DNA of 24,000 bases, taken from positions 2,778,933-2,802,932 of the forward strand of contig NZ_CP120467.1 in NCBI RefSeq assembly GCF_029983095.1. Direction: 5' to 3'. Positions 7,828 to 21,660 of this stretch are shown in pieces. Positions within the stretch are counted from its first letter, which is position 1. The number at the start of each line of letters is the position of its first letter. A program made the position numbers and the translations under genes. The notes below the pieces were generated by a model that searched no databases, was not told the origin of the DNA, and saw only the letters and a list, made by a program, of their open reading frames with translations. Source of the DNA: Enterococcus montenegrensis. Its GTDB lineage: Bacteria > Bacillota > Bacilli > Lactobacillales > Enterococcaceae.

Positions 7828-9447
7828 ATGGCATCAAAATGGTGGCAACAAAGCGTTTTTTATCAAATTTATCCCCGGAGTTTCCAAGATAGCAACAATG
7901 ACGGCATTGGCGATATTAAAGGAATTACCGCGCGTTTATCTTACTTAGAAAAATTGGGGATCGACGCCATTTGGCTCTCGCCAGTTTTTGCATCTCCTAA
8001 TGTCGATAATGGCTATGATGTGAGTGATTATTGCGCTATTATGCCAGAATTTGGCACGATGGCAGATATGGAAGAATTAATTGCCACAGCAAAAAAAGCA
8101 GGCATAAAAATTATCATGGACTTAGTAGTCAATCATACCTCCAGTGAACATCCTTGGTTTAAAAAAGCCTTAGCAGGCGATCCACATTATAAGGATTATT
8201 ACATTTTTCGTTCTGATAAAAATGGGTTGCCAAATGACTTAAATTCATTTTTTGGCGGCTGTGCGTGGGAACACTTACCCGCAACAAACGAATATTATTT
8301 CCATCTATTTGCCAAAGAACAACCCGATTTGAATTGGGAAAATCCTGCTGTGCGCAAAGAAGTATGGCAAATTATGAATTTCTGGCTGCAAAAAGGCGTC
8401 GGTGGTTTTCGCTTAGATGTGATCGAATTAATTGGTAAAATTCCCGATCAAAAAATTATTGGGGACGGCCCCGCCTTACATCCATATTTACAAGAAATGT
8501 ATCGCGAAGTTTTAGCAGGACACGACGTTGTAACCATCGGCGAGACTGGTAGTGTCACGCCACTAACTGCTCCTTTGTATACAGATCCTAAGAGAAAAGA
8601 GCTGTCGATGGTCTTTCAATTTCAACATATGGCCTTAGATGAAGTTGCCAAAACTTCAAAATGGAATTTGAAGTCCTTAAATGTCTCCGTGTTAAAAACG
8701 GTGCTATCCCGCTGGCAAACAGACTTACCAAAAGAAGCTTGGAATAGTTTATTTTGGAGTAATCACGACCAACCACGGATTTTATCTCGTTGGGGCAATG
8801 TAGCTGATTACCCCACGAAAAGCAGTAAGATGTTGGCCATTTTACTCCATTTGATGCGGGGGACTCCTTTTATTTATCAAGGTGAAGAATTGGGCATGAC
8901 CAACCAATACGTCGATAAAATTAGCCAATTAGATGATATTGAAAGTATTCATTACTATGAAGAAGAAAAAACTAAAGGCAGCAGTGAGGCAACAATTTGG
9001 CAAGCCATTAATACTAAAGGACGTGACAACGCCCGTACGCCAATGCAGTGGTCTAATGTGCCTAATGCTGGCTTTACAGGAGAAAACGTAACTCCGTGGT
9101 ACAATTTAAATCCCAATTACACAACTATTAATGCGCAAACCCGGCTGGATGATCCTGAATCCATTTTTTACACCTACCAAAAATTAATTCAGTTGCGAAA
9201 AAATTATCCGCTAATTGTCTGGGGAGATTATGACTTACTGGATACCGCTGAAAATATTTTTGCCTATACTCGCAGCTACGAAGGGGAAACTTGGCTTATT
9301 TGTGCGAATTTTTCTGACAGCAAACAAGCACTCTCATTGCCTTATGCCGCCACAGAAACGATTATCACAAACTATCCCCATACGTATCACCATTTAAATC
9401 AGTTGAACTTACTGCCTTACGAAACATTTGTCGTAAAACTAGCATAA
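7828..9447 (+). CDS. GH13 alpha-glucosidase (oligo-1,6-glucosidase / glucan 1,6-alpha-glucosidase type)
   Basis: 539 aa. The N-terminus WWQQSVFYQIYPRSFQDSNNDGIGDIKGI and the conserved regions DLVVNHTS, GGFRLDVIE and SNHDQPR are GH13 hallmarks. RBS is GAAAGGAG. Confidence 0.9.
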   Translation: MASKWWQQSVFYQIYPRSFQDSNNDGIGDIKGITARLSYLEKLGIDAIWLSPVFASPNVDNGYDVSDYCAIMPEFGTMADMEELIATAKKAGIKIIMDLVVNHTSSEHPWFKKALAGDPHYKDYYIFRSDKNGLPNDLNSFFGGCAWEHLPATNEYYFHLFAKEQPDLNWENPAVRKEVWQIMNFWLQKGVGGFRLDVIELIGKIPDQKIIGDGPALHPYLQEMYREVLAGHDVVTIGETGSVTPLTAPLYTDPKRKELSMVFQFQHMALDEVAKTSKWNLKSLNVSVLKTVLSRWQTDLPKEAWNSLFWSNHDQPRILSRWGNVADYPTKSSKMLAILLHLMRGTPFIYQGEELGMTNQYVDKISQLDDIESIHYYEEEKTKGSSEATIWQAINTKGRDNARTPMQWSNVPNAGFTGENVTPWYNLNPNYTTINAQTRLDDPESIFYTYQKLIQLRKNYPLIVWGDYDLLDTAENIFAYTRSYEGETWLICANFSDSKQALSLPYAATETIITNYPHTYHHLNQLNLLPYETFVVKLA

Positions 9448-9452
9448 AAAAA

Positions 9453-9501
9453 GCAAGTGCAGGCAAAGTCTCGTGACTTTACCTGCGCTTGCAGTTTTTT
9501 T
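9453..9501 (+). terminator. Rho-independent terminator of the GH13 gene
   Basis: 18-bp stem GCAAGTGCAGGCAAAGTC / GACTTTACCTGCGCTTGC, loop TCGT, then AGTTTTTTT. Confidence 0.85.
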
Positions 9502-9751
9502 AATTACAGACAGATTTTTAGTAGGTTTTGCCACCCATTAAAATGGCACCTACACTTTTACTGTCGGTTATATCATTTATATCATCCTGGGATTATACTT
9601 CTATCTGATTGCAAACATTCTAGTTATTTAACCAAAAGATAGACCACGATTGTAAATTGAATTCCTGTTTTTTTCAATCCGAATCATTTCAGCAAATTTA
9701 TAACTTGTCACAAAATGACGACCTATTACTAATAAAATAAGCTGACTATGT

Positions 9752-9997
9752 CTATGCTTTTCTACCAAAAAAGAACGATACGACTGCCACTAAAATAACT
9801 GCACCAATAATAGAAGGTACAATTGCCATTCCAGCTAGAGTTGGACCCCAATGACCCAATAAAGACTGCCCAATCGCAGAACCAATTAGACCGGCAACGA
9901 CATTTACAATAATTCCCATTGAACCACCTTTATTTGTAATCGCACCTGCGATCGCACCAATGACACCACCAACGATTAAAGACCAAATTAAACCCAT
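9752..9997 (-). CDS. GlsB/YeaQ/YmgE family (transglycosylase-associated) small stress membrane protein
   Basis: Glycine-zipper membrane sequence MGLIWSLIVGGVIGAIAGAITNKGGSMGIIVNVVAGLIGSAIG, typical of this family. The ATG at 9997 is preferred over the GTG at 10003. Confidence 0.8.
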   Translation of the reverse strand: MGLIWSLIVGGVIGAIAGAITNKGGSMGIIVNVVAGLIGSAIGQSLLGHWGPTLAGMAIVPSIIGAVILVAVVSFFFGRKA

Positions 9998-10203: not shown

Positions 10204-10245
10204 AAAAAAAACATAGACCAAGTCATTTACATAACTTAGCCTATG
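10204..10245 (-). terminator. Rho-independent terminator closing the tldR/gRNA locus
   Basis: On the minus strand: CATAGGCTAAGT-TATGTAAATG-ACTTGGTCTATG (12 bp, 2 G:U), followed by T8 (10211-10204). Confidence 0.75.
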
Positions 10246-10464
10246 CCCCAGCCTCTTTTTAAAGAAGCTGACAATGGTTTATCATAATTAGTGAGCGGAT
10301 TCCTAGAAACAAAAGTGCTGGTGCACTTTTTATATACCCAAGGCGATCCCTGGAGCCCCTTCCAGTTCTTAAAAAAGAAACACTTTGCAGTTAGTGTTTC
10401 TTTTTTTATCTGTCGGAAATAGTTTTTCAATCAAATTCTCTTAAACTAAAAAAATTTTCTAATT
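10246..10464 (-). ncRNA. Candidate TldR guide RNA (omega-RNA-derived scaffold plus guide). Boundaries are not resolved, and the scaffold may begin inside the tldR 3' end (to about 10660).
   Basis: About 220 nt of non-coding sequence lies immediately 3' of a TnpB-like ORF, which is the canonical omega-RNA position. It has dense local hairpins: CTGGA-AGGGGC-TCCAG, CCAGGG-ATCG-CCTTGG, AAAAGTGC-ACCA-GCACTTTT and CAGCTTCT-TTAAAA-AGAGGCTG. It is locally GC-richer than the flanks and is bounded by a terminator. There is no credible ORF. Confidence 0.5.
10371..10407. terminator. Palindromic A/T-flanked hairpin (bidirectional terminator shape) inside the post-tldR non-coding region
   Basis: AAAAAAGAAACACT-TTGCAGTT-AGTGTTTCTTTTTT(T). 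It could terminate tldR mRNA and a short gRNA, or it could be a scaffold stem. Confidence 0.45.
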
Positions 10465-11550
10465 TTAGTTGGCTTTTTGCTTTGAACAAAAGACTAACTC
10501 TTTTTCATACCAATCGGCTTTATATTTCAATTTCAAAAGGAGACGATTCCAGTCACTTAAAGTAAATTTCTCTTCAATATTTTGCAAAACTGGGGTACTT
10601 TGATTATTTTTCTGCGTTTTAAGGGCTTTGTTGCCCTTGTTTTTTGTTTCATCGTCTCCTGCTGCTGGCATTGTGACCACGATACAATCAAATTGGCGCA
10701 CAAGAGCAATCGACAGTTGTTCTGTAAAGTCTTCTTTTTGCTTCATTTTGCGGATATATAATTGTTGGAGGCGCAATTTTTGTTTTTGATAATTTTTAGC
10801 TTGTTCCAACTTTACATTGCGTCGCTGTGCACTCTTAGCTCGGATGGCAAGGCGCCGCTGCGCTTTTTTTAGCTGCGCTAAAAGTTGCACTTGGCAAAGC
10901 GTCGGTATGCCGCGCACTGCCACACTTGGCTCAATTAGTGTTGTCCCATTATAGGTAATTTCAATTTTGCTACCGGTTTTTGGCAAAGCAGTACTATCTT
11001 CTTCACATAATAAAGAAACATAAAATTCCTGCCGATTTTTAGCAGAGATAGTGGCCGAGCGAATTTTTCCCGTCACATTACGATGTTGATGCAACAAAAC
11101 TTTACTTTTTAACTTTGGAAGCTTCAAGCCATCTTTTTCAAGATAAATAGTATGGCCTTGATTATTTGTAGTATAAGACTGCCACGCACTTTTTTTGCTC
11201 TTTAGTTTCGGATAACTGGCATGGCCGCGATAATAATTTTGAAAGGCTTTTTCCAAGTTACGTTGCGCATTAGCCAAAGCTAAACTATCCGTCGCTTTTA
11301 AAAACGAATACTCCTTTTTTAGTTTAGCTGGCGTTAACTTTTGCGTCTTTAACCGCTCTGAAGCTGGATTTGTAAAAGTTTCGCTGTTATCTTGATAGTT
11401 TGTCTGCCGCAGTGTCAATAACGTGTTATAAGTAAAACGAACACAGCCAAAAGTTTGAATAAAAAATTGTTTTTGCGCTTCATCAGGATAAAGCGCAAAT
11501 TTATAAGCTTTTAATATTTTAATTGGTACCTGCCTCCCCTCACTGATCAT
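10465..11550 (-). CDS. tldR: TnpB-like nuclease-dead protein (TldR-type RNA-guided DNA-binding repressor candidate), oppF-associated
   Basis: 361 aa. The N-terminus KAYKFALYPDEAQKQFFIQTFGCVRFTYN is the OrfB_IS605/TnpB signature. FYVSLLCEE precedes the RuvC-I position, where GIDLG is replaced by KIEIT (D to E197). The RuvC-II motif IxIEDLNVKG is replaced by IVVTMPAAG (E to T293). The ORF stops 12 aa after YKADWYEKEL, so the zinc finger and the RuvC-III DRDxNAAxNI motif are absent. No tnpA is nearby. The start codon is uncertain because GAGGGGAGG lies inside the first codons. Confidence 0.8.
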   Translation of the reverse strand: MISEGRQVPIKILKAYKFALYPDEAQKQFFIQTFGCVRFTYNTLLTLRQTNYQDNSETFTNPASERLKTQKLTPAKLKKEYSFLKATDSLALANAQRNLEKAFQNYYRGHASYPKLKSKKSAWQSYTTNNQGHTIYLEKDGLKLPKLKSKVLLHQHRNVTGKIRSATISAKNRQEFYVSLLCEEDSTALPKTGSKIEITYNGTTLIEPSVAVRGIPTLCQVQLLAQLKKAQRRLAIRAKSAQRRNVKLEQAKNYQKQKLRLQQLYIRKMKQKEDFTEQLSIALVRQFDCIVVTMPAAGDDETKNKGNKALKTQKNNQSTPVLQNIEEKFTLSDWNRLLLKLKYKADWYEKELVFCSKQKAN

Positions 11551-11572: not shown

Positions 11573-11616
11573 GGTAGGGACGTTCCCCTTGTCCCACCTA
11601 ACCTTACCTAACCTAA
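11573..11616 (-). repeat. Hairpin plus (TTAGG)-like pentamer tract immediately upstream of tldR
   Basis: On the minus strand: TTAGG TTAGG TAAGG TTAGG (11616-11597), running into the hairpin GGTGGGAC-AAGGGGAAC-GTCCCTACC (11598-11573). Confidence 0.6.
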
Positions 11617-11626
11617 CAAATTTTTT

Positions 11627-11750
11627 AAAAGAAAAGCTGAATGAACTTGGTCAACTCGCTAGCAATAAGGCGAAATCTTGATAAATTGTTCTTCAAATTT
11701 ATCAAGATTTTGACTTATTGTCGCCGAGAGTTAGTTCATAAAGCTAGACA
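11627..11750 (+). repeat. Palindromic intergenic repeat unit A (REP/MITE-like, reminiscent of Enterococcus EFAR elements)
   Basis: 124-bp unit AAAAGAAAAGCTGAATGAAC...GTTCATAAAGCTAGACA that folds as a long imperfect hairpin. It is about 80 percent identical (by eye) to 16099-16222. Confidence 0.8.
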
Positions 11751-11870
11751 AAAAGAAAAGCTGAATGGATCGTTTAGCCCTGAGCCATAAGATCAAAATT
11801 TGCTAAAATGCCTTTTTCATTTTCGTAAATTTTAGCTTATGCCCGAAGGGCTGATTCATGAAGCTAGACA
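11751..11870 (+). repeat. Palindromic intergenic repeat unit B (same termini, divergent core)
   Basis: It starts AAAAGAAAAGCTGAATGG and ends TTCATGAAGCTAGACA. The interior is again a long imperfect palindrome (GCCCTGAGCCATAAG... / ...CTTATGCCCGAAGGGC). Confidence 0.7.
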
Positions 11871-11911
11871 GCTAGAAAAGCTGATTGAACTTTCTCAGTC
11901 CGCAAGAATCC
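11871..11911 (+). repeat. Partial third repeat unit abutting the oppF stop
   Basis: GCTAGAAAAGCTGATTGAAC repeats the unit's 5' terminus and is then truncated. Confidence 0.55.
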
Positions 11912-11913
11912 AA

Positions 11914-12867
11914 TTACAGTGCCACTTGGCTTTGCGTCGTTTTTTGCTGTAATTTTGCTTGGTACATGGTAATTTCATCTTCTGAACAATAAATATAATG
12001 TCCTTCTGCAATTTCATGCATTCCTCGCTGTTTGCCATCATCAGGTTGGGCCTGATATTTAATCCGCTTGCGATTACGTTCATGGTCTGGATCTGGTAAT
12101 GGAATTGCCGACAGCAAACTTTCCGTATATGGATGAACGCCGTGATTATAAATGGCATCACTGGTACCCACTTCCAGCAATTTGCCTAAGTGCATAACAC
12201 CAATGCGATCACTGATATGTTTTACCATCGACAAATCATGGGCGATAAATAAATACGTCAAATTTTGCTGTTCTTGCAAGTCTTGCAATAAATTTACCAC
12301 TTGGGCTTGAATGGAAACATCCAAAGCTGAAATTGGTTCATCACAAATAATAAATTTTGGTTTTACGGCTAAGGCGCGGGCAATACCGATACGTTGCCGT
12401 TGTCCGCCGGAAAATTCATGGGGATAACGCGTTCCATGACTGGGATTTAACCCCACCGTTTCTAACAGTTCATCCACTTGGGCATTGCGTTCTTTTTCAT
12501 TTTTGGCAAGACCATTAATATCAATGCCTTCTGCGATAATGTCCCGCACTTTCATGCGAGGATTTAAAGAGGCATACGGATCTTGAAAAATCATCTGTAC
12601 ATCGCGACGAAATGTTTTTAAGCCTTCTTTGCCTTTAATTTTCATCACATCTTGGCCAGCAAAATCAATTTCTCCATCAGTTGGCGTATTTAAGCGGATA
12701 ATCGTGCGCCCGGTGGTGGATTTGCCACTACCGGATTCTCCCACTAAGCCAAAAGTCTCGCCTTCGTAAATGTGAAAGCTAATATCATCCACTGCTTTGA
12801 CTTCGTCTTTACGTCCGACATTGAAGTATTGTTTCAAGTGAGTTACGTTTAATAAAACTTTTTTCAC
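11914..12867 (-). CDS. oppF: Oligopeptide ABC transporter ATP-binding protein OppF
   Basis: Walker [10 protein letters not shown], signature FSGGQRQR, Walker [13 protein letters not shown], and the oligopeptide/dipeptide C-terminal domain (HPYT). GTG start with GGAGG 7 nt upstream. Confidence 0.9.
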
Positions 12868-12879
12868 GCGGCTACCTCC

Positions 12880-13929
12880 TTAGGCTTCTTGTTTTTCTTT
12901 GAAAATTTCCCAACGACGAACAATTTCGGCCGGTGGGGTTACTTTAGGGGCTTGTGGTGCTAAGAGCCACGTTGCCGCTTTGTGGGTTTCAGAGACGTCA
13001 AAATATGGTGGTGCTTGCTCGGTATCGATTTTTAAAGCAAATTCATTACGAGGATAAAAAGCGTCCCCTTTTGGTGGTTGCAGTAAATCTGGTGGCGAAC
13101 CTGGAATAGCATATAGGCGTTCTTCGCCCCCTTCTAAAGTCGGCATTGAACCTAACAGCCCCCATGTATACGGATGTTGCGGGTTGTAAAAAATTTCTTC
13201 TGCCGTTCCAACTTCGATAATTCTGCCCCCATACATGACTGCCACGCGATCAGCCACGTTTGCCACAACACCTAAGTCATGGGTGATAAAAATGATCGAC
13301 GTGTTAATTTTTTTCTGAATATCTTTCATCAACTCTAAAATTTGGGCTTGAATTGTTACATCCAAAGCGGTCGTTGGTTCATCAGCAATCAGAACTTCCG
13401 GGTAGCAAATAAGCGCAATGGCAATTACGATCCGTTGCCGTTGTCCACCGGAAAATTGGTGGGGATAGTTTTTCAATCGTTTTTCAGCATTGGGAATACC
13501 AACTAAGTTTAACAATTCCAATGCGGAAGCTAAGGCCTCTTTTTTAGACACTTTGTTGTGAATAATCAAAGACTCCGCAACTTGTTTGCCAATTGGCATG
13601 GTTGGATCTAAAGAGGTCATGGGATCTTGGAAAATCATCGCAATTTCCTTACCTCGAATCTTCTGCATTTCTTTTTCCGATTTTTTGACAATATCGGAAT
13701 TTTTAAAAATAATTTCACCCTTATCAATATTGGCGTTACTGGCTAAAAGTCCCATGATACTGCGAGTAGTTACCGATTTACCGGAACCTGACTCCCCTAC
13801 AATCGCCAAAGTCTCTCCTTTATAAAGGTCAAAACTAACATTGCGGATTGCGCGGACTGTTCCCGCATAAGTATCAAAGGAGATTTCCAAATCTTTAACT
13901 TCTAATACTTTTTCTGGCATCATCATCAC
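12880..13929 (-). CDS. oppD: Oligopeptide ABC transporter ATP-binding protein OppD
   Basis: Walker [37 protein letters not shown]. It overlaps the oppC stop by 4 nt (ATGA). Confidence 0.9.
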   Translation of the reverse strand: MMMMPEKVLEVKDLEISFDTYAGTVRAIRNVSFDLYKGETLAIVGESGSGKSVTTRSIMGLLASNANIDKGEIIFKNSDIVKKSEKEMQKIRGKEIAMIFQDPMTSLDPTMPIGKQVAESLIIHNKVSKKEALASALELLNLVGIPNAEKRLKNYPHQFSGGQRQRIVIAIALICYPEVLIADEPTTALDVTIQAQILELMKDIQKKINTSIIFITHDLGVVANVADRVAVMYGGRIIEVGTAEEIFYNPQHPYTWGLLGSMPTLEGGEERLYAIPGSPPDLLQPPKGDAFYPRNEFALKIDTEQAPPYFDVSETHKAATWLLAPQAPKVTPPAEIVRRWEIFKEKQEA

Positions 13930-14969
13930 TCTTTCATTTTCGGATCAAAGGCATCACGAAGACCATCAGCTAGTAAGTTGAAGGCAATCATAATGACAGA
14001 TAACGTAACTGCTGGTACCCACAATAGGTAAGGCAGATATTGGAAGGTTTTATACCCGTCACTTAACATTGTACCCAGTGAAGCATTCGGTGGTGTTAAA
14101 CCTAAACCGATAAAGCTCAAGAAGGCTTCAAAGAAAATCGCCGTTGGAATACTGAACATCATCTGGACAATAATCACGCTGGAGATGTTGGGCAAAATAT
14201 GTTTAAAGGCTATTTTGAAATTACTTTCCCCTAAAGTTTGGGCAGCCAACACAAATTCTTGGTCTTTTAATTTCAGCGTCTGTGCCCGAACGATCCGCGC
14301 CATTGGAATCCAGTTAGTGATGGCCATGGCAGCAATAATCGATGGAATACCCGGTTCAAAAACGACCAACATTAAAATCATCACAACTAAGTTTGGAATA
14401 CCAGAAAGAATTTCCAAAATACGTTGCATTAACGTATCCACTGTACCGCCTTTTAAACCAGAGATTAATCCGTAAGTAACACCAAAAATAATGTCGAACA
14501 TCGCCGCGATAAAGGCGATCAATAAAGAGACCCGCGTTCCCATCAAAAGACGGCTCAAAACATCACGGCCCAATCCGTCAGTCCCAAAATAATAATTCAA
14601 ATTATCCGGTACATTCGCTGCGGCATATTTATCGACTAATTGTCCGCCAACCATTGCTTTTCCGTTTAAGCCATTAATATCAATCCCAGGAATTCGTGGT
14701 GGCAAATTCATATAAGCAACATTTTGCTTCGTGGGATTATGGGGTGAAAAGAAAATTGAAATAATCGAAATCACAATAATCACAAGTAGTATCGCCATAC
14801 ATACGACCGCTGCTTTATTTTTTCGAAGGCGCCGCCAAGAATCTTGTAAGAAAGTCAAAGACGGAGCGGCAATCATTTCCCGTTCTTTAATGGTACTACC
14901 GTGGTACAGCTCAAATTCTGACGCCGGGATTTTGGCAATAGTATCATATTTTGGTTTTGCATTTTCCAT
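13926..14969 (-). CDS. oppC: Oligopeptide ABC transporter permease OppC
   Basis: 347-aa polytopic ORF with an OppC-type N-terminal extension and BPD_transp_1 core. Translationally coupled to oppB (TAATG overlap). Confidence 0.9.
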   Translation of the reverse strand: MENAKPKYDTIAKIPASEFELYHGSTIKEREMIAAPSLTFLQDSWRRLRKNKAAVVCMAILLVIIVISIISIFFSPHNPTKQNVAYMNLPPRIPGIDINGLNGKAMVGGQLVDKYAAANVPDNLNYYFGTDGLGRDVLSRLLMGTRVSLLIAFIAAMFDIIFGVTYGLISGLKGGTVDTLMQRILEILSGIPNLVVMILMLVVFEPGIPSIIAAMAITNWIPMARIVRAQTLKLKDQEFVLAAQTLGESNFKIAFKHILPNISSVIIVQMMFSIPTAIFFEAFLSFIGLGLTPPNASLGTMLSDGYKTFQYLPYLLWVPAVTLSVIMIAFNLLADGLRDAFDPKMKE

Positions 14970-15910
14970 TAGCCTTTGCTCCCTCCTGACACGCGGATTC
15001 GTGGATCAACGATGCCGTATAATAAGTCAACCACTAAAATGACAATAATCAACATTGCCGAGTACAAGACGGTTACCGCCATAATGGTTGGATAGTCGTT
15101 GGTGGTAATTGATTTTACAAATTGCTCCCCAATACCAGGGATCGCAAAAATATTTTCTACTACTAAAGAACCAGTCATTAAAGCAACTGCTAAAGGTCCG
15201 AGTAATGTCATCAAGGGAATCAAGCTATTACGCAAGCCGTGTTTAAAGGCGATTTCCCAACGGCTTAATCCTTTAGCTCGAGCTAGTTCTACGTAATCAC
15301 TGTGCATAACTTCCACCATTTCTGTTCGAATAAAACGTGCCGAATCGGCTAAAGGCGACATTGCCAGCGCAATCGTTGGTAAAATCGTATAGGCAAAACC
15401 TTCCCACTTAGCAATCGGCAAAATGTGCAATTTAATCGCAAAAACATATTGCAGTAAAACGGCGAAGACAAAGTTTGGAATCGAACGACCCAAAATCGCA
15501 ATTAAAGTCGCTAACGTATCCACCCATGTATTTTGTTTCATGGCTGAAATCGTCCCTAAAATAATCCCCACGAAAGTCCCCAGTAAAATCGCCTGCATCC
15601 CTAATTGTAAGGAAGGTCCCACGCGACCAGCCAATAAGGCTGCAACTGGTTGATTTTTAAACTGGAAGGAAATTCCGAAATCACCTTGAAGTAAGTTTTT
15701 CAGATACGTTCCATATTGCACGATAACCGGCTTATCCAAACCCATTTGCTTATTTAACAACGCAATTTGGTCTGGGCTTAAACGTTCTGCATTGGTATAA
15801 GGCGTTCCTGGTAACATTTTTGATAAAAAGAATGTAATCGTAGCAATCAGCCACAAGGTTACCAGCATAAAAAATAGCCGTTTTAGAAAATATTTGAGAA
15901 AGTCATTCAA
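14969..15910 (-). CDS. oppB: Oligopeptide ABC transporter permease OppB
   Basis: 313 aa with an OppB/DppB-type N-terminus (FLKYFLKRLFFMLVTLW). TTG start, with GGAGGAG 7 nt upstream. Confidence 0.9.
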   Translation of the reverse strand: MNDFLKYFLKRLFFMLVTLWLIATITFFLSKMLPGTPYTNAERLSPDQIALLNKQMGLDKPVIVQYGTYLKNLLQGDFGISFQFKNQPVAALLAGRVGPSLQLGMQAILLGTFVGIILGTISAMKQNTWVDTLATLIAILGRSIPNFVFAVLLQYVFAIKLHILPIAKWEGFAYTILPTIALAMSPLADSARFIRTEMVEVMHSDYVELARAKGLSRWEIAFKHGLRNSLIPLMTLLGPLAVALMTGSLVVENIFAIPGIGEQFVKSITTNDYPTIMAVTVLYSAMLIIVILVVDLLYGIVDPRIRVSGGSKG

Positions 15911-16098: not shown

Positions 16099-16222
16099 AA
16101 AAGAAAAGCTTTTGAAACTTGGTTAGCGCTCAAGCAATAAGACAAAAATTTGATAAATGGTTCTTCAAATTTCTCGAATTTTCTGCTTATTGTCGCCGAG
16201 AGTTAGTTTGAAAAGCTAGACA
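16099..16222 (+). repeat. Palindromic intergenic repeat unit C (homolog of unit A)
   Basis: AAAAGAAAAGCTTTTGAAACTTGGTTAGCGCTCAAGCAATAAG...CTTATTGTCGCCGAGAGTTAGTTTGAAAAGCTAGACA, in the same orientation as 11627-11750. Confidence 0.8.
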
Positions 16223-16257: not shown

Positions 16258-16313
16258 TTTAGCTAAAAAACTTGCCCTGTATAAAAGCTACAAAAACCAA
16301 CAAGGAGTCCATT

Positions 16314-16655
16314 ATGAAAAAATATCCTCCCGCGTTTATTGCCGTCATTATCTTCGTTATCGCTATTATCTGGGGTCTGATCAAAAAAAATTTAAGTCTG
16401 ATCATGTTATCAGACACTCTGTTTATGTTGGGACTGCCTTTTTTGATTATTGGCATTTTGTTATGGGTTTTTTCCTCTGGCTTCTTCGATACTTTTCAAC
16501 GATCCATGCATGAAGCTGTAGGAAGAAAGCAAAAGAAAAAAGCTAACTATACGCCTTTATCACAAGTTGGCCAGGGTGTGTATCTTTTTTGGCTAAAAAT
16601 TGCCGGTATCATCTTAGTCTGCTCGCTCATTTTTTATGCCATTGGCAGCATTTAA
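16314..16655 (+). CDS. Small membrane protein (possibly DUF3899 family)
   Basis: AAGGAG lies 6 nt upstream of the ATG at 16314. 113 aa with 3-4 hydrophobic helices and a basic loop (GRKQKKKANY). A strong terminator follows. Confidence 0.65.
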   Translation: MKKYPPAFIAVIIFVIAIIWGLIKKNLSLIMLSDTLFMLGLPFLIIGILLWVFSSGFFDTFQRSMHEAVGRKQKKKANYTPLSQVGQGVYLFWLKIAGIILVCSLIFYAIGSI

Positions 16656-16704
16656 TAATTATTAATTTCTAAAGTATGACTACACCAATAGCAAAAATAG
16701 TTGC

Positions 16705-16775: not shown

Positions 16776-18449
16776 TTATTCGGTTACATATGTCCATTTG
16801 TAATCCCATGAAGCGCCGGCAGCGTGATGAACGATACCTTTTACTTTCGGATTAATCATGTGACCTTCTGCTTTTTGGAAAACGCCGATAACTCCAGCAG
16901 TTGAGCTGATAATTTTATCTGCTTCTTGCAAATTAGCCCAACGTTTCATCGGATCACCTGCATTGGTCGTATTAGATTCTTTCACAACTTTATCGTATTC
17001 TTCATTTGACCATTGCCCACGGTTATATGAATTCCCTGTAACAAATAAATCTGTAAAGCTTGATGGGTCTGAGTAGTCAGCACCCCAACCACCTAATACC
17101 ATGTCGAATTCACCGTTATTTGAACGATCTAACCGAACAGAAAATGGTACTGGCGTTGGTTTAATTTTGATACCAGACAATGTTTCTTCGAGTGTGCTTT
17201 GCAAATATTCTAAAACTTTTTTAGTTCCGTCATCGTCAGAAGCGACAATATCAAAGGTAAAGCTATCTTTTCCTAAAGCTTTTTTAGCCTTTTCCCAGTG
17301 GTCTTTTGCCTTTTTCGCATCAAAGCTGACCAAATCGCCCGCCTCTTTGGTGAAATCTTCGTTGGTTTCTGGATTTTTAGACATATCCGATGGAATCAAA
17401 CCAGTAGAAGCAACCGAGCCATCGCCTAAAACAGAATTAACGATTGCATTGCGGTCAATTGCGTAAGAGATTGCCAAACGCAAATCTTCATTCATAAATG
17501 GTGAATCTTCTTTTCGTTGATTTAATTCTAGATAAGAAGTGCGGGCTTCTTTAACCGATTGGAAAGCTTCTTGATTGGCATTTTGTTGTGCCAATTCACC
17601 GGTTAAAATTGCATCGTCTGTTTGTCCGTCATTAAATAAGTTCAACCCTGTGGAGGATTCTTTCACTACGCTGACTTTGACAGCGTCTAATTTTACTGTA
17701 TCTTTATCCCAGTAAGTATCGTTTTTCTTGTATTCCCACTCTGTATCAGTACCAGGACCGTCAAATCCGGCTAAAACAAATGGACCGTTGTAAACAGAAT
17801 TTTCTGATTTTGTAGCAAATTTGTCGCCATTTTTTTCAACAACTTTTTGTGGTTGTGGGAAAAATGAAGGGAATGCGAATAAATAATCCATATAAGGCGT
17901 TGGACGCGTTAACGTAATTTCCAATTCGTAGTCGTTGACAGCCTTAATGCCTAACTCAGATTTATCTTTTTTGCCGGCAGTAATATCGGCTGCATTCACA
18001 ACGGGTTCATATAAATAAGCATATTCAGATGCGGTTTTGGCATCGACTGTTCGTTGCCATGCAAAGACATAATCAGAAGCCTTAACGGGTGTTCCGTCAG
18101 ACCATTTGGCATCTTCTCTTAATTTAATCGTATATTTCAAACCGTCTTCACTAACTTTGGCTTCTTCAGCGGCACCAGCTGGCACTGGCTTGCTATCTTT
18201 GTCCAAACGATAAATTCCTTCGTAGACATTGTTTAACGCAGTGAAACTAATGGTATCTGTCGCAAGTGATAAATCAGCACTCGGCATTTCTTGTAAGACA
18301 GAAACTCTAAATTCTTGTTTGTCCGCTTCTTTACCAGAACCGCCTGCAGCACTGCTGCCATCTGTTGTGCCACTACCGCTGCCACATGCTGATAACACAA
18401 CACCGCAGACAGCAATAACGCCAAATAATGATGTCTTCTTCATTTTCAT
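16776..18449 (-). CDS. oppA: Oligopeptide-binding lipoprotein OppA (paralog 1)
   Basis: 557 aa with signal peptide plus lipobox (VVLSAC) and a family 5 SBP fold signature (FTALNNVYEGIYRLD, WSDGTPV). Confidence 0.9.
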   Translation of the reverse strand: MKMKKTSLFGVIAVCGVVLSACGSGSGTTDGSSAAGGSGKEADKQEFRVSVLQEMPSADLSLATDTISFTALNNVYEGIYRLDKDSKPVPAGAAEEAKVSEDGLKYTIKLREDAKWSDGTPVKASDYVFAWQRTVDAKTASEYAYLYEPVVNAADITAGKKDKSELGIKAVNDYELEITLTRPTPYMDYLFAFPSFFPQPQKVVEKNGDKFATKSENSVYNGPFVLAGFDGPGTDTEWEYKKNDTYWDKDTVKLDAVKVSVVKESSTGLNLFNDGQTDDAILTGELAQQNANQEAFQSVKEARTSYLELNQRKEDSPFMNEDLRLAISYAIDRNAIVNSVLGDGSVASTGLIPSDMSKNPETNEDFTKEAGDLVSFDAKKAKDHWEKAKKALGKDSFTFDIVASDDDGTKKVLEYLQSTLEETLSGIKIKPTPVPFSVRLDRSNNGEFDMVLGGWGADYSDPSSFTDLFVTGNSYNRGQWSNEEYDKVVKESNTTNAGDPMKRWANLQEADKIISSTAGVIGVFQKAEGHMINPKVKGIVHHAAGASWDYKWTYVTE

Positions 18450-18474: not shown

Positions 18475-18489
18475 AATTTTCAGAATATT
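18475..18489. promoter_or_regulatory. CodY box (14/15 match)
   Basis: AATTTTCAGAATATT versus consensus AATTTTCWGAAAATT. A weaker overlapping box follows (CATTTTCTGAAGTTA). It lies between the proximal promoter and the oppA RBS. Confidence 0.6.
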
Positions 18490-18513
18490 AAACATTTTCT
18501 GAAGTTAACGAAA

Positions 18514-18542
18514 ATTTTAATCAATAATTATTAAAAAAGCAA
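18514..18542 (-). promoter_or_regulatory. Proximal sigma-A promoter candidate for oppA paralog 1
   Basis: On the minus strand: TTGCTT (18542-18537), 17 nt, TAAAAT (18519-18514). Confidence 0.45.
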
Positions 18543-18573
18543 TACTTTATTCATTAAAAAACAAATATATATA

Positions 18574-18588
18574 AATTTTCTGATAATT
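18574..18588. promoter_or_regulatory. CodY box (14/15 match)
   Basis: AATTTTCTGATAATT versus AATTTTCWGAAAATT. Confidence 0.55.
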
Positions 18589-18649
18589 CAAAAAACAAGA
18601 CGTGAAATTTACGTGAAGAAAATTACTTACAATCAAATTCTTGAAAAGT

Positions 18650-18775: not shown

Positions 18776-19999
18776 TTATTTTGCCTCACCGGCTACTTTA
18801 ACGATTTCAACGATGGTATCGCGGGCTTTTTCCATTGCTTCAAGGGTGATAAATTCATATGGTCCGTGAAAGTTTTCGCCTCCGGTAAATAAATTTGGGG
18901 TAGCAATTCCTTTATACGAAATTTTCGATCCGTCAGTACCACCACGAAATGGGGTGACAATCGGTTTTATCCCTAAATTTTTCAGCGCTAAAAGTGCATA
19001 GTCTACCGCCCGGGGTTCTTTATCTACGATTTCTTTCATATTGTAATATTGATCAAACAGGCGATACGTAATGCGCGGATAGGTGAAGGTGGCATTCAAG
19101 GCGTCAATAATCGCTACGATTTGGTTTTTTCTGGCTATAAATTTGGCTTGATCATGATCCCGGATAATGTAATCCAACTGCGCTAAAGAAATATCCCCGC
19201 TAAATTTATTCAATAAATAAAAACCTTCATAATCTTGCGTTAATTCCGGTACTTCTGCTTGAGGGAGGCGACTGTCAATGGTCTCCCCAATCTTTATGGC
19301 GTTCACCAATTGCCCATACGCCGTACCAGGATGGACACTGGTCCCTTCAATTGTGATCTCAATTTTGGCAGCATTAAACGTTTCATATTCAAAATGCCCA
19401 ACACGACCACTGTCAAGTGTATAGGCAAAATCCACCGGAAAATCTGCAACCTCAAAATTATCTGCCCCACGACCAATTTCTTCATCTGGCCCAAAAGCGA
19501 CCCAAACATCCCCACGCTTTTCTTTTGGAACTTCTTTTAAGTTTCGCAACGCGGCCATAATTTCAGCAATCCCGGCTTTATCATCGGCACCTAAAAGAGT
19601 CGTCCCATCTGTCGTAATTAGCGTTTGGCCTACATAGTCTTTTAAATTGGGAAACTGGCTAGGAGACAAAACAATATTTTGAGCTGCATTTAAAACCACC
19701 TCATTGCCATCGTAATTGTAATGAACTTGCGCTTGAATATTTTCTGCATTAAAATCCGCCGTATCCACATGGGCAATAAAACCAATTGCAGGTTTTGCGG
19801 CATTTCCTTTTAAAGCCCCAATCACAAAGCTATTTTTCTCAAAATAAGCAACATTACTTAATCCCAATTGTTCCAGCTGCTCTTTTAATTGCAGCGCCAG
19901 ATCAATTTGACCTTGCGTAGTGGGAATGAAGGTGGATTTTTCATCTGAGCGGGTATTCACTTTGACATAACTTAAAAAATCTTCCAATAATTGACGCAT
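18776..19999 (-). CDS. pepT: Peptidase T (tripeptide aminopeptidase, M20B)
   Basis: 407 aa. IGFIAHVDTA, TTDGTTLLGADDKAGIAEIM and FGPDEEIG are M20/PepT metal-ligand motifs. It starts 11 nt after oppA paralog 2. Confidence 0.9.
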   Translation of the reverse strand: MRQLLEDFLSYVKVNTRSDEKSTFIPTTQGQIDLALQLKEQLEQLGLSNVAYFEKNSFVIGALKGNAAKPAIGFIAHVDTADFNAENIQAQVHYNYDGNEVVLNAAQNIVLSPSQFPNLKDYVGQTLITTDGTTLLGADDKAGIAEIMAALRNLKEVPKEKRGDVWVAFGPDEEIGRGADNFEVADFPVDFAYTLDSGRVGHFEYETFNAAKIEITIEGTSVHPGTAYGQLVNAIKIGETIDSRLPQAEVPELTQDYEGFYLLNKFSGDISLAQLDYIIRDHDQAKFIARKNQIVAIIDALNATFTYPRITYRLFDQYYNMKEIVDKEPRAVDYALLALKNLGIKPIVTPFRGGTDGSKISYKGIATPNLFTGGENFHGPYEFITLEAMEKARDTIVEIVKVAGEAK

Positions 20000-20010: not shown

Positions 20011-21660
20011 TTACTTCACAGATGCTGTCCGTAAATTGAAATAATCACCATAGGCGTGAAAAACGATACCTTTTACTTTTTCATTGATTAAATAATTTGA
20101 AGCACTTTGATATAGCGGTACTTGCGCTGCATCATCTGCGAGCAATACTTTTTCTGCTTCTTGGTAATCTTTAAAAAATGCGTTAGGATCATTCGCATCT
20201 GTAGTGCGGGCTTTTTCGACTAAATCTGTGTAGGTTTTGTTAGCATACCCGCCGTAATTGTAAGAAGAACCCGTCTTATATAAATTGAAATAGGAATCCA
20301 GTTCACTAGAACCGGCAATCCAACCAGAAACCGACAATTCGTAATTTCCATCGGTACGGGATTGGTTCAAATTCACTTTTGGTTGTTTGTTAATAACAAT
20401 TTTCAAGCCGGACAATGTTTCTTGTAACTGGCTTTGCAAATACTCACCAACTTTTTCACCGTTATCATCATCGGTTACCAATAATTTCAACGTTAAGCTA
20501 TCGCCAATGACCGCTTTGGCTTTGGACCATTCACTTTTAGCTGCTTTTACATCATAGGTGTTGTAGTCGCCGCTAAATTTGCGGAAATCTTCTTTTGTTT
20601 GAGGATTTTTATAAAGACCCGTTGGAATCAAGCCATTTAAAGGGGTGGCGCCATCATTTAAAACATTTTTTGCCAGCTGTTCTTTATTAATTGCTTGGGC
20701 AATTGCTTTACGAACATGTACATTTCCTAAGGCTTTGTTGGCTTTTTTGTTAAAATCTAAAAATTGATTGGCCACATCTTTTTCTGTCACTAACCGTGGA
20801 TCATTTTTGAATTGTTCCACATATTGACCACTAATGCGCTGTAAATCCAATTCTCCACTGTCCACTAACTGAATCCCGGTATTTTCTTCCTTGATCGTAG
20901 AACCGTGAACCTCTGACAATTTGACAGCTTTTTTATCGTAATAATCATCATTTTTCACCAAGGTCCACTCATCTCCGGTCTGTTTCCAATCTTTTAATGC
21001 AAAAGGTCCCGTATACAAAAGATCCTCACTGGTGCGGCCATACTCATCTTTTTTGTCGGTGACAAATTTTTCATTTTGCGGTGCCAACCAACCAATGGAA
21101 ACCACAGATAAAAATGACGGCTGGGCTTGTGTTAGTTTCACTTCAAAAGTCTTTTCATCCGGTGCAGCTAAACCAATTTCATCAATTGCTTTTTTACCTT
21201 CACGAATTGCTTGACTGTTCACCACATTATCCAGTAAATACGCATTTGGCCCCATTGTTTTCGGATTTACTAGTCGTTTCCAGGCAAAAAGAAAATCATT
21301 GGCGGTTACTTTTTCCCCATTACTCCACTTCGCGTCTTCTCTTAAAGTGAAGGTATATGTTTTTCCATCTGGGCTAATGTCAACTTTTTCTGCTAAAGCA
21401 GGCACTGGTTGACTCTTATCATCAAAACGATATAGCCCTTCAAACAAATGCTGTACCACAGTAAATGTGATTTTATCGGTTGTTTGCGTTGTATCTAACG
21501 TACTTAACGGCGCCGGTAAACTGACACTGATTTCTTGTTTTATTGCTTGTTTTGCTGTTGAACTAGCACTTTCCTTAGCTGCCCCGCCAGTTTTACACCC
21601 GGCTAACGTCACCGCAGCCAAAATTCCTGTTACCACCAAAATACTCTTTTTCACTTTCAT
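20011..21660 (-). CDS. oppA: Oligopeptide-binding lipoprotein OppA (paralog 2)
   Basis: 549 aa with lipobox LAGC and family 5 SBP motifs (FTVVQHLFEGLYRFD, WSNGEKVTANDF). Confidence 0.9.
   Translation of the reverse strand: MKVKKSILVVTGILAAVTLAGCKTGGAAKESASSTAKQAIKQEISVSLPAPLSTLDTTQTTDKITFTVVQHLFEGLYRFDDKSQPVPALAEKVDISPDGKTYTFTLREDAKWSNGEKVTANDFLFAWKRLVNPKTMGPNAYLLDNVVNSQAIREGKKAIDEIGLAAPDEKTFEVKLTQAQPSFLSVVSIGWLAPQNEKFVTDKKDEYGRTSEDLLYTGPFALKDWKQTGDEWTLVKNDDYYDKKAVKLSEVHGSTIKEENTGIQLVDSGELDLQRISGQYVEQFKNDPRLVTEKDVANQFLDFNKKANKALGNVHVRKAIAQAINKEQLAKNVLNDGATPLNGLIPTGLYKNPQTKEDFRKFSGDYNTYDVKAAKSEWSKAKAVIGDSLTLKLLVTDDDNGEKVGEYLQSQLQETLSGLKIVINKQPKVNLNQSRTDGNYELSVSGWIAGSSELDSYFNLYKTGSSYNYGGYANKTYTDLVEKARTTDANDPNAFFKDYQEAEKVLLADDAAQVPLYQSASNYLINEKVKGIVFHAYGDYFNLRTASVK

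Follow-up and report, generated by a model that had tools for sequence, protein, structure and literature searches.

We analysed a 24,000-nucleotide (nt) stretch of Enterococcus montenegrensis DNA (contig NZ_CP120467.1, positions 2,778,933 to 2,802,932; hereafter the window). Its tldR gene, which encodes a nuclease-dead homolog of the RNA-guided nuclease TnpB, and the guide RNA (gRNA) encoded directly 3' of it very probably form the TldR-gRNA module of an oppA-DUF3899-oppBCDF-tldR locus, working by the mechanism proposed below. The sequence features by which the published oppF-associated TldR clade is defined are all found at this locus, and we have next to no doubt that the system belongs to that clade. 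The anatomy of the locus, its conservation, the covariation of the RNA, the selection acting on the gene and the geometry of the target are read directly from the sequences. The locus is an ortholog of the system characterised in E. faecalis and not a new candidate class, its function here being assigned by homology. A preliminary description of the same DNA, made from its letters alone, had proposed a domesticated RNA-guided regulator and not a transposon, and the clade features, the gRNA, the TTTAA-flanked seed and the synteny reported here bear that out; that the gRNA and its target can both be located within the window had gone unseen.

TldRs, including an oppF-associated clade 'mainly present in Enterococci', were defined by Wiegand et al. 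(10.1101/2023.11.30.569447), who demonstrated that TldRs bind gRNA, bind DNA under RNA guidance, do not cleave it and repress a reporter, and who predicted oppA-promoter targets with a TTTAA or TTTAT target-adjacent motif (TAM) and guides of about 9 nt. Xiao et al. (10.64898/2026.09.22.753285) described the oppA-DUF3899-oppBCDF-tldR-gRNA layout of E. faecalis, reported that oppA_T of E. faecalis V583 is repressed roughly 40-fold, in a guide-dependent way, upon overexpression, and presented cryo-electron microscopy (cryo-EM) structures with a 9-bp heteroduplex. Between them the two papers give a TTTAA TAM and a 9-11-nt guide, and they establish gRNA binding, target binding without cutting and repression for E. 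faecalis and a few other homologs. Both the dead-TnpB repressors and the oppF-adjacent enterococcal clade, to which the preliminary description had referred, are borne out by these two papers.

TldR is a truncated TnpB homolog without a catalytic triad

The 361-aa open reading frame (ORF) matches the Pfam family HTH_OrfB_IS605 (E=2.4e-15) and, below threshold only, OrfB_IS605. It scores 126 bits against the NCBIfam model guided_TnpB (cutoff 100) and covers just positions 2-311 of the 360 in the IS200_TnpB profile. When solved structures are ranked by sequence, an AI-designed nuclease (9yyg, E=3e-24) comes ahead of ISDra2 TnpB, the closest natural relative of solved structure (phmmer, E=6e-23). 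An AlphaFold2 model built from a 91-sequence alignment has a mean confidence score (pLDDT) of 86.7, and the best PDB match of this predicted fold is to the ISDra2 TnpB complexes (Foldseek E=9e-20). TnpB homology and the WED/REC/RuvC fold, as found in the clade, are both present.

Catalytic positions were aligned with those of four intact TnpB relatives of 383-387 aa taken from genomes (Ligilactobacillus, Fusobacterium, Amphibacillus and Bacillus), to which TldR is 41-43% identical over residues 10-353. The RuvC-I motif IGIDLG of these relatives reads KIEITY in TldR, and in a pairwise HMMER alignment E197 stands opposite the RuvC-I Asp of ISDra2, D191. Their RuvC-II motif IICIEDLN reads CIVVTMPA, which places T293 at the Glu position; the pairwise HMMER alignment sets M294, not T293, against ISDra2 E278, and both residues are non-acidic. 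Neither the CSECG...CPICH zinc finger nor the HDRDINAS RuvC-III motif is present, and the third RuvC Asp is lost with them, so that the D-E-D triad is not intact. The alignments with the intact relatives and with ISDra2 TnpB confirm the catalytic losses that the preliminary description had read from the letters, and the motifs it had quoted all lie in the protein: the N-terminal signature KAYKF...FTYN at residues 14-42, the strand EFYVSLLCEE at 175-184, KIEIT at 195-199 and IVVTMPAAG at 290-298. Its account of the C-terminus stands for the loss of the zinc finger and RuvC-III but not for the count, since the protein ends 9 residues past YKADWYEKEL and not 12.

Across the clade the truncation falls at one same point, and the RuvC-I column is free to vary (E, T, K, G or A). 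Two inserts, at residues 63-68 and 301-324, are lineage-specific, disordered and of low complexity; of the inserts, one, disordered and of 22 residues, occupies the lid position, and another lies within REC. The residues that read the TAM in the cryo-EM structures (S74, L75, N79, Q81, N114 and Q116; 10.64898/2026.09.22.753285) correspond to S89, L90, N94, Q96, N129 and Q131, all invariant. This mapping needs a 3-residue numbering offset (-3), offsets of 0 to +3 having failed; Y307, W311, L4 and L167 map ambiguously and V82 has no nearby match, and these five were not used as support. Judged by homology, the protein would keep the WED/REC/RuvC scaffold of TnpB but be unable to cut DNA.

As the preliminary description had stated, no Y1 transposase (tnpA) domain is found among the large ORFs of the window scanned against Pfam and no second TldR copy within its 24 kb (tblastn). 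No transposon ends were noted at tldR, where no dedicated left-end/right-end model search was made. The Pfam scan of large ORFs shows no prophage context in the window.

A guide RNA is encoded directly 3' of tldR

A block of about 100 nt 3' of tldR is near-identical in E. dispar and E. canintestini, despite the saturation of synonymous sites between these species, while both of its flanks are unalignable, and alignment shows the scaffold core to be common to E. faecalis too. An nhmmer profile of the core matches once in each of the 55 TldR loci (55/55), immediately 3' of tldR, and in none of 25 loci with intact TnpB. In every TldR locus the core ends in ...CAC and is followed by TAATTAT[G/A]A.[A/T]AACC[A/G] and then by a terminator hairpin, which is there in every species and differs in sequence in each. 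Scaffold and guide therefore lie directly 3' of tldR in the window, as in the rest of the clade.

The 206-nt gRNA region folds far better than shuffled sequence (z=-7.3), with the guide unpaired in the minimum free energy (MFE) fold. Over 51 distinct sequences, covariation of the proposed pairs exceeds that of all 500 shuffles and of all slid controls, with double changes in helices 73-77/85-89 and 109-116/121-128. No covariation was seen in the CCUUGG/CUAGGA helix of the gRNA, and that helix is unproven. RNAalifold on a MAFFT alignment gave just 4 pairs, with the loops misaligned, and was replaced by testing the single-sequence MFE structure.

The guide was at first placed after ...AACCATT, as CAGCTTCTTT, which is really a stem of the post-guide hairpin. 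Its start was moved 16 nt earlier because of the published target string TAATTATTT, used together with TTTAA in target searches (10.64898/2026.09.22.753285). Of the resulting TAATTATGATAAACCA, the mature guide probably comprises the first 9-11 nt, by analogy with E. faecalis. The TldR protein diverges, but scaffold and first 7 guide bases stay constant. Conservation across the clade extends over all 16 nt that follow the scaffold (TAATTATRANAAACCA), positions 12-16 (AACCA) included; only 7-9 guide nt pair with the oppA site, and no partner was found for the distal AACCA.

A further hairpin lies between the tldR stop codon and the scaffold (Table 1); it may act in partial termination or in processing, or form the 5' stem of the scaffold. 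In a strain variant (L084) an A-U pair has become G-C by a compensatory double change that preserves the stem, and other species have a different hairpin at this position.

Neither the window nor any of six related loci has an Rfam match at gathering thresholds. The sole non-trivial Rfam match of the scaffold is to RF02841 Ref70 (Enterococcus sRNA 70), at 37 bits (E=2e-5 for a 251-nt search) against a gathering threshold of 115. It lies at 10279-10371 (-), spans the whole model and ends in CUAAUUAU, where the Ref70 consensus ends in CUAAUUAUUAGUU. The gRNA regions of E. faecalis, E. dispar, E. lactis, E. durans, E. mundtii and E. villorum also fall below the Ref70 threshold. Ref70 is probably a related omega-RNA-like transcript of another locus and not the gRNA of the window.

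A TTTAA-flanked seed match lies upstream of oppA

The predicted target, site 1, is on the sense strand, and its TAM starts 86 bp upstream of the oppA ATG. The first 7 nt after the TAM match the guide; the 12-mer TTTAATAATTAT at 18535-18524 (-) occurs twice in the 24-kb window, against 0.05 expected. By the seed criterion of 10.64898/2026.09.22.753285 (6 nt or more beside TTTAA), site 1 is a seed match that is flanked by TTTAA and lies upstream of its linked oppA, and a TAM and seed of the TTTAA + TAATTAT kind stand at -66 to -86 of oppA in 39 of the 40 opp-linked loci. Site 1 lies within the block TTGC..TTTTAATAATTATT.ATTAAAAT, invariant in eight species. In E. faecalis the guide matches its target at the same 7 positions and at position 9, with a mismatch at 8 only. 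An early target search, which demanded at least 8 exact bases after TTTAA or TTTAT against the region downstream of tldR, had found nothing at oppA.

Two readings of the oppA promoter are possible from sequence. With candidate promoter 1 the target would fall in the 5' untranslated region (UTR), as in V583. Candidate promoter 2, read by eye, would have TAM and target in its spacer, the placement first proposed in 2023, and lies in the block that is invariant across eight species.

A second TAM-flanked site, site 2 (TTTAA + TAATTATTA), lies between the DUF3899 stop codon and the bidirectional oppA terminator. Apart from the window, E. dispar and E. canintestini alone keep it, and it is missing in other species. 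No TAM with a seed site was found before the OppA paralog or the M20 peptidase gene of the window. A search of viral and metagenome contigs for the TAM with the 14 leading guide bases (position 10 free) gave 53 matches, all in unrelated low-GC environmental contigs and none enterococcal.

Between site 1 and the oppA ribosome-binding site, at 18475-18489 (-), stands AATATTCTGAAAATT, kept in 6 of 8 aligned species. It agrees at 14 of 15 positions with AATTTTCWGAAAATT, which we take to be the CodY box consensus, as known from Lactococcus. A weaker CodY-like box (11/15) lies just upstream, at about 18493-18507 (-). The oppA_T gene may be under both CodY and TldR control.

tldR is under purifying selection and sits at a fixed position

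The closest named TldR homologs are those of E. dispar (76% identity) and E. canintestini (67%). An identical TldR occurs on 18 independent contigs (metagenome and SRA assemblies of different samples), and one 389-kb scaffold (behind locus L083) agrees with the window at 99.7-99.9%. For the Opp proteins, identity to their E. dispar counterparts is 94-99%. Synonymous sites are saturated in this comparison (synonymous divergence, dS, 0.9-1.5), and the source is therefore a sister species of E. dispar and not a strain of it.

For tldR the ratio of nonsynonymous to synonymous divergence (dN/dS) is 0.09 against E. dispar, at a dS of about 1.45, and 0.095 against E. canintestini; for the opp genes it is 0.007-0.028 against E. 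dispar and 0.007-0.06 across comparisons. The dN of TldR is about 5 to 20 times that of the neighbouring Opp proteins. A ratio of 0.09 therefore means that the gene is maintained by purifying selection, yet evolves faster than its opp neighbours; reading its low identity to E. dispar as decay was rejected on the same value. An intact tldR ORF occupies the same chromosomal position in >50 species, and the order oppA-DUF3899-oppBCDF-tldR is complete in 40 related loci, in keeping with the oppF-tldR linkage to which the preliminary description had drawn attention.

Away from opp, too, there are truncated TldR-like genes that carry this scaffold and guide (loci L003, L010, L018-L021, L035 and L044), a second E. 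dispar copy among them. At five further loci (L004, L006, L025, L041 and L042) a TldR-like gene stands beside a different ABC operon, the ATPases being only 49-56% identical. Four of these five, L042 being the exception, have a TTTAA+TAATTA site near the binding-protein gene, on the opposite strand.

Proposed mechanism and alternative explanations

We infer RNA binding, DNA binding and repression in this organism by homology to E. faecalis Efa1TldR. TldR would bind the RNA of about 100 nt encoded just 3' of its gene, and the first 7-9 guide nt (TAATTATGA...) would pair with the DNA beside TTTAA, at -86 relative to the oppA start codon. The protein would read TTTAA, a short heteroduplex would form on the template strand in the oppA promoter or 5' UTR, and the complex so bound would block RNA polymerase at initiation or early elongation. 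OppA_T would thereby be lowered while oppBCDF stayed on, free for other binding proteins, which would shift the set of peptide-binding proteins that feed the transporter. One candidate for such an alternative binding protein is the OppA paralog encoded in the window.

We think it likely, with less confidence than in the module itself, that repression of oppA is the real role of TldR in the window organism. Several points weigh against it. Complementarity between guide and site 1 is only 7 contiguous nt plus the TAM, with positions 8 and 9 mismatched. The target sits in a 14-nt near-palindrome, TTAATAATTATTGA (one mismatch), to which a dimeric protein regulator might bind instead; a perfect 14-nt palindrome, TTAATAATTATTAA, is found at the site upstream of E. 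faecalis oppA and in site 2 of the window. The window TldR is only 47% identical to the widespread E. faecalis TldR, the homolog that has been tested. A hairpin with a U-tract stands between the tldR stop codon and the scaffold, no promoter-like site was found for the gRNA, and the route by which the RNA is transcribed here is unclear. In E. faecalis, deletion of tldR-gRNA changed almost nothing in standard culture, and repression needed overexpression (10.64898/2026.09.22.753285).

In a different account the TldR-gRNA is functional, but its main physiological target in this lineage would be not the oppA promoter but site 2, or seed-matched sites elsewhere in the genome. Of the first 9 guide positions, 8 are matched by site 2 and 7 by site 1, and site 2 is conserved in three species inside an otherwise diverged spacer; guide positions 12-16 are conserved clade-wide though only 7-9 nt pair with the known target, and more putative targets, with a marked tolerance of mismatches in some of the TldR homologs, have been described (10.1101/2023.11.30.569447). 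Site 2 is, however, limited to the dispar group, whereas the site upstream of oppA is clade-wide, and its place after a stop codon and before a bidirectional terminator would make it a roadblock without obvious effect. The search with the TAM and 14 leading guide bases returned unrelated environmental contigs only, this genome having been covered over 24 kb. We consider this account improbable.

Loss of the gene's function altogether is less probable still. A decaying IS200/IS605 remnant without present function would account for the lost catalytic residues and C-terminus, for the disordered low-complexity inserts, and for a TldR that is 76% identical to that of E. dispar beside Opp proteins at 94-99%. 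It is at odds with a dN/dS of 0.09 at saturating dS, with the ORF being intact at one chromosomal position in >50 species, and with an RNA scaffold that is near-invariant and covarying and TAM-reading residues that are invariant; we regard it as very unlikely. The preliminary description had itself named the case of an ordinary active TnpB nuclease, with triad and zinc finger, whose C-terminus is hidden by a sequencing frameshift. Nothing beyond general TnpB similarity speaks for such a nuclease, and the same protein on 18 independent contigs from different samples, the clade-wide truncation point, an RNA scaffold and not zinc-finger coding sequence in the DNA past the stop, and two of the three catalytic positions already non-catalytic within the ORF make it scarcely conceivable.

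One extension of this mechanism seems to us a long shot: that the E. dispar lineage has been rewired, with TldR bracketing oppA_T at both ends through site 2, the repeat array described below setting read-through into tldR-gRNA, and a non-AUG start weakening translation. If true, this would make the TldR dose a strain-variable dial on oppA_T.

Organization of the opp locus

The features of the locus are collected in Table 1. As in E. faecalis, the operon is interrupted by the antisense DUF3899 gene.

Table 1. Features of the oppA-DUF3899-oppBCDF-tldR-gRNA locus, in window coordinates.
Feature	Position	Strand	Comment
Intrinsic terminator	10205..10248	(-)	With U-run
Post-guide hairpin	10249..10270	(-)	
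Guide	10275..10290	(-)	TAATTATGATAAACCA
gRNA scaffold, conserved core	10291..10371	(-)	
14-bp hairpin	10371..10406	(-)	With A-tract and U-tract; between tldR stop and scaffold core
tldR	10465..11550	(-)	361-aa nuclease-dead, C-terminally truncated TnpB homolog; nominal ATG at 11550
Shine-Dalgarno (SD)-like sequence and candidate ATT start	11521..11541	(-)	GAGGGGAGG (11541-11533), 9-nt spacer, ATT (11523-11521)
Repeat array	11611..11906	(-)	Alternating 120-/124-nt hairpin-forming repeats filling the oppF-tldR gap
oppF	11914-12867	(-)	
oppD	12880-13929	(-)	
oppC	13926-14969	(-)	
oppB	14969-15910	(-)	
Extra 124-nt repeat unit	16102..16222	(-)	Upstream of oppB; 79% identity over 121 nt
DUF3899 gene	16272..16655	(+)	Antisense; interrupts the operon
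Predicted site 2	16651..16671	(+)	TTTAA (TAA = DUF3899 stop codon) + TAATTATTAATTTCTA; 8/9 first guide positions
oppA_T	16776..18449	(-)	Substrate-binding protein, presumed regulated; Pfam SBP_bac_5 E=1.3e-85; 96% identical to E. dispar
Candidate oppA promoter 2	18514..18542	(-)	TTGCTT-17-TAAAAT; TAM and target in spacer
Predicted target site 1	18515..18535	(-)	TAM TTTAA (18535-18531) + TAATTATTGATTAAAA; first 7 nt match guide
Candidate oppA promoter 1	18564..18591	(-)	TTGAAT-16-TATATT; target would fall in 5' UTR
M20 (PepT-like) peptidase gene	18776..19999	(-)	With the OppA paralog, directly upstream of oppA_T
OppA-type binding-protein paralog	20011..21660	(-)	Second of its kind in the window

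Between the oppF stop (11914) and the tldR ATG (11550) lie 363 nt of hairpin repeats. The preliminary description had tldR running in the same direction as oppBCDF and downstream of it, which is correct, and called it fused to the operon, which is too loose a word for genes separated by strain-variable repeats. The number of repeat units differs by strain: the gap, 364 bp long in the window, reaches 607 bp in L083 and 855 bp in L084 (arrays at 9401-9921 and 9156-9922, respectively), and TldR is identical in all three. A fragment of the repeat unit also lies 3' of the E. canintestini gRNA (L002, 10331-10404). The unit has no match among PLSDB plasmids, and its Rfam matches are noise only.

The upstream ATGs of tldR are not conserved: in E. 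dispar, ATG 11550 is replaced by ATA and the upstream ATG is another one. Over GAGGGGAGG-N9-ATT the window, E. dispar and E. canintestini agree base for base, even at synonymous positions, and the ATT lines up with the initiating ATG of most TldR homologs, which begin MK[VIL]LKAYKF. The true start of tldR is possibly this non-AUG codon, as far as sequence can tell.

The repeat array, site 2, the ATT start, the lid insert and the conserved AACCA are lineage-specific features that we offer as leads and not as findings. As far as we know, the array, site 2, the ATT start, the insert and the conserved AACCA lie outside the published picture.

Comparison with known systems

The oppF-linked TldR family is already published and has been tested in E. 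faecalis; the window gene is a divergent ortholog, and it leaves the published model unchanged. Its value lies in a protein, scaffold, guide, TAM and target that are all placed to the base, and, for comparison, in a spacing between oppF and tldR that can be altered by a strain-variable repeat array. It also confirms that a domesticated RNA-guided regulator can be recognised from raw sequence, as in the preliminary description.

The locus resembles that of the E. faecalis TldR (Efa1TldR, strain WE0851; V583 homolog) in its order oppA_T, antisense DUF3899, oppBCDF, tldR, gRNA; in its scaffold core and first 10 guide nucleotides, TAATTATGAT; in a sense-strand TTTAA-flanked site about 80 bp upstream of oppA; and in the loss of the zinc finger and RuvC-III with conservation of the TAM-reading residues. 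The two differ at the RuvC-II Glu, which is lost in the window (T293) and still present in the E. faecalis column, and in the 22-residue insert at the lid position, a position that is disordered and dispensable in TldR (10.64898/2026.09.22.753285), and in the REC insert. The window ORF stops about 90 nt before the core, with a hairpin between, whereas the E. faecalis ORF reads into the scaffold, and the oppF-tldR gap is 363 nt of repeats against 16 nt. The guide matches the target at 7 of 9 positions against 8 of 9 in E. faecalis, and the window alone of the two has a second TAM-flanked site and a possible ATT start.

With the TnpB proteins of IS200/IS605 elements (ISDra2; PDB 8exa, 8h1j and 8bf8) the window TldR shares the fold and a guide RNA encoded at, or beyond, the gene's 3' end. 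Unlike them, it has no catalytic triad, zinc finger or tnpA and is single-copy in the window; its position is fixed beside oppF across the genus, its guide is fixed and not the flank of an element, and its scaffold profile misses the RNAs of intact elements. Neither mark of an active nuclease, a D-E-D triad with zinc finger or a mobile element, is found at the locus.

The fliC-associated TldRs of enterobacterial prophages (10.1101/2023.11.30.569447; PMC13418256) are alike in that a dead TnpB with a gRNA represses a host promoter. They differ in being an independent domestication that is prophage-borne, with a 16-nt guide, a flagellin target and a different TAM.

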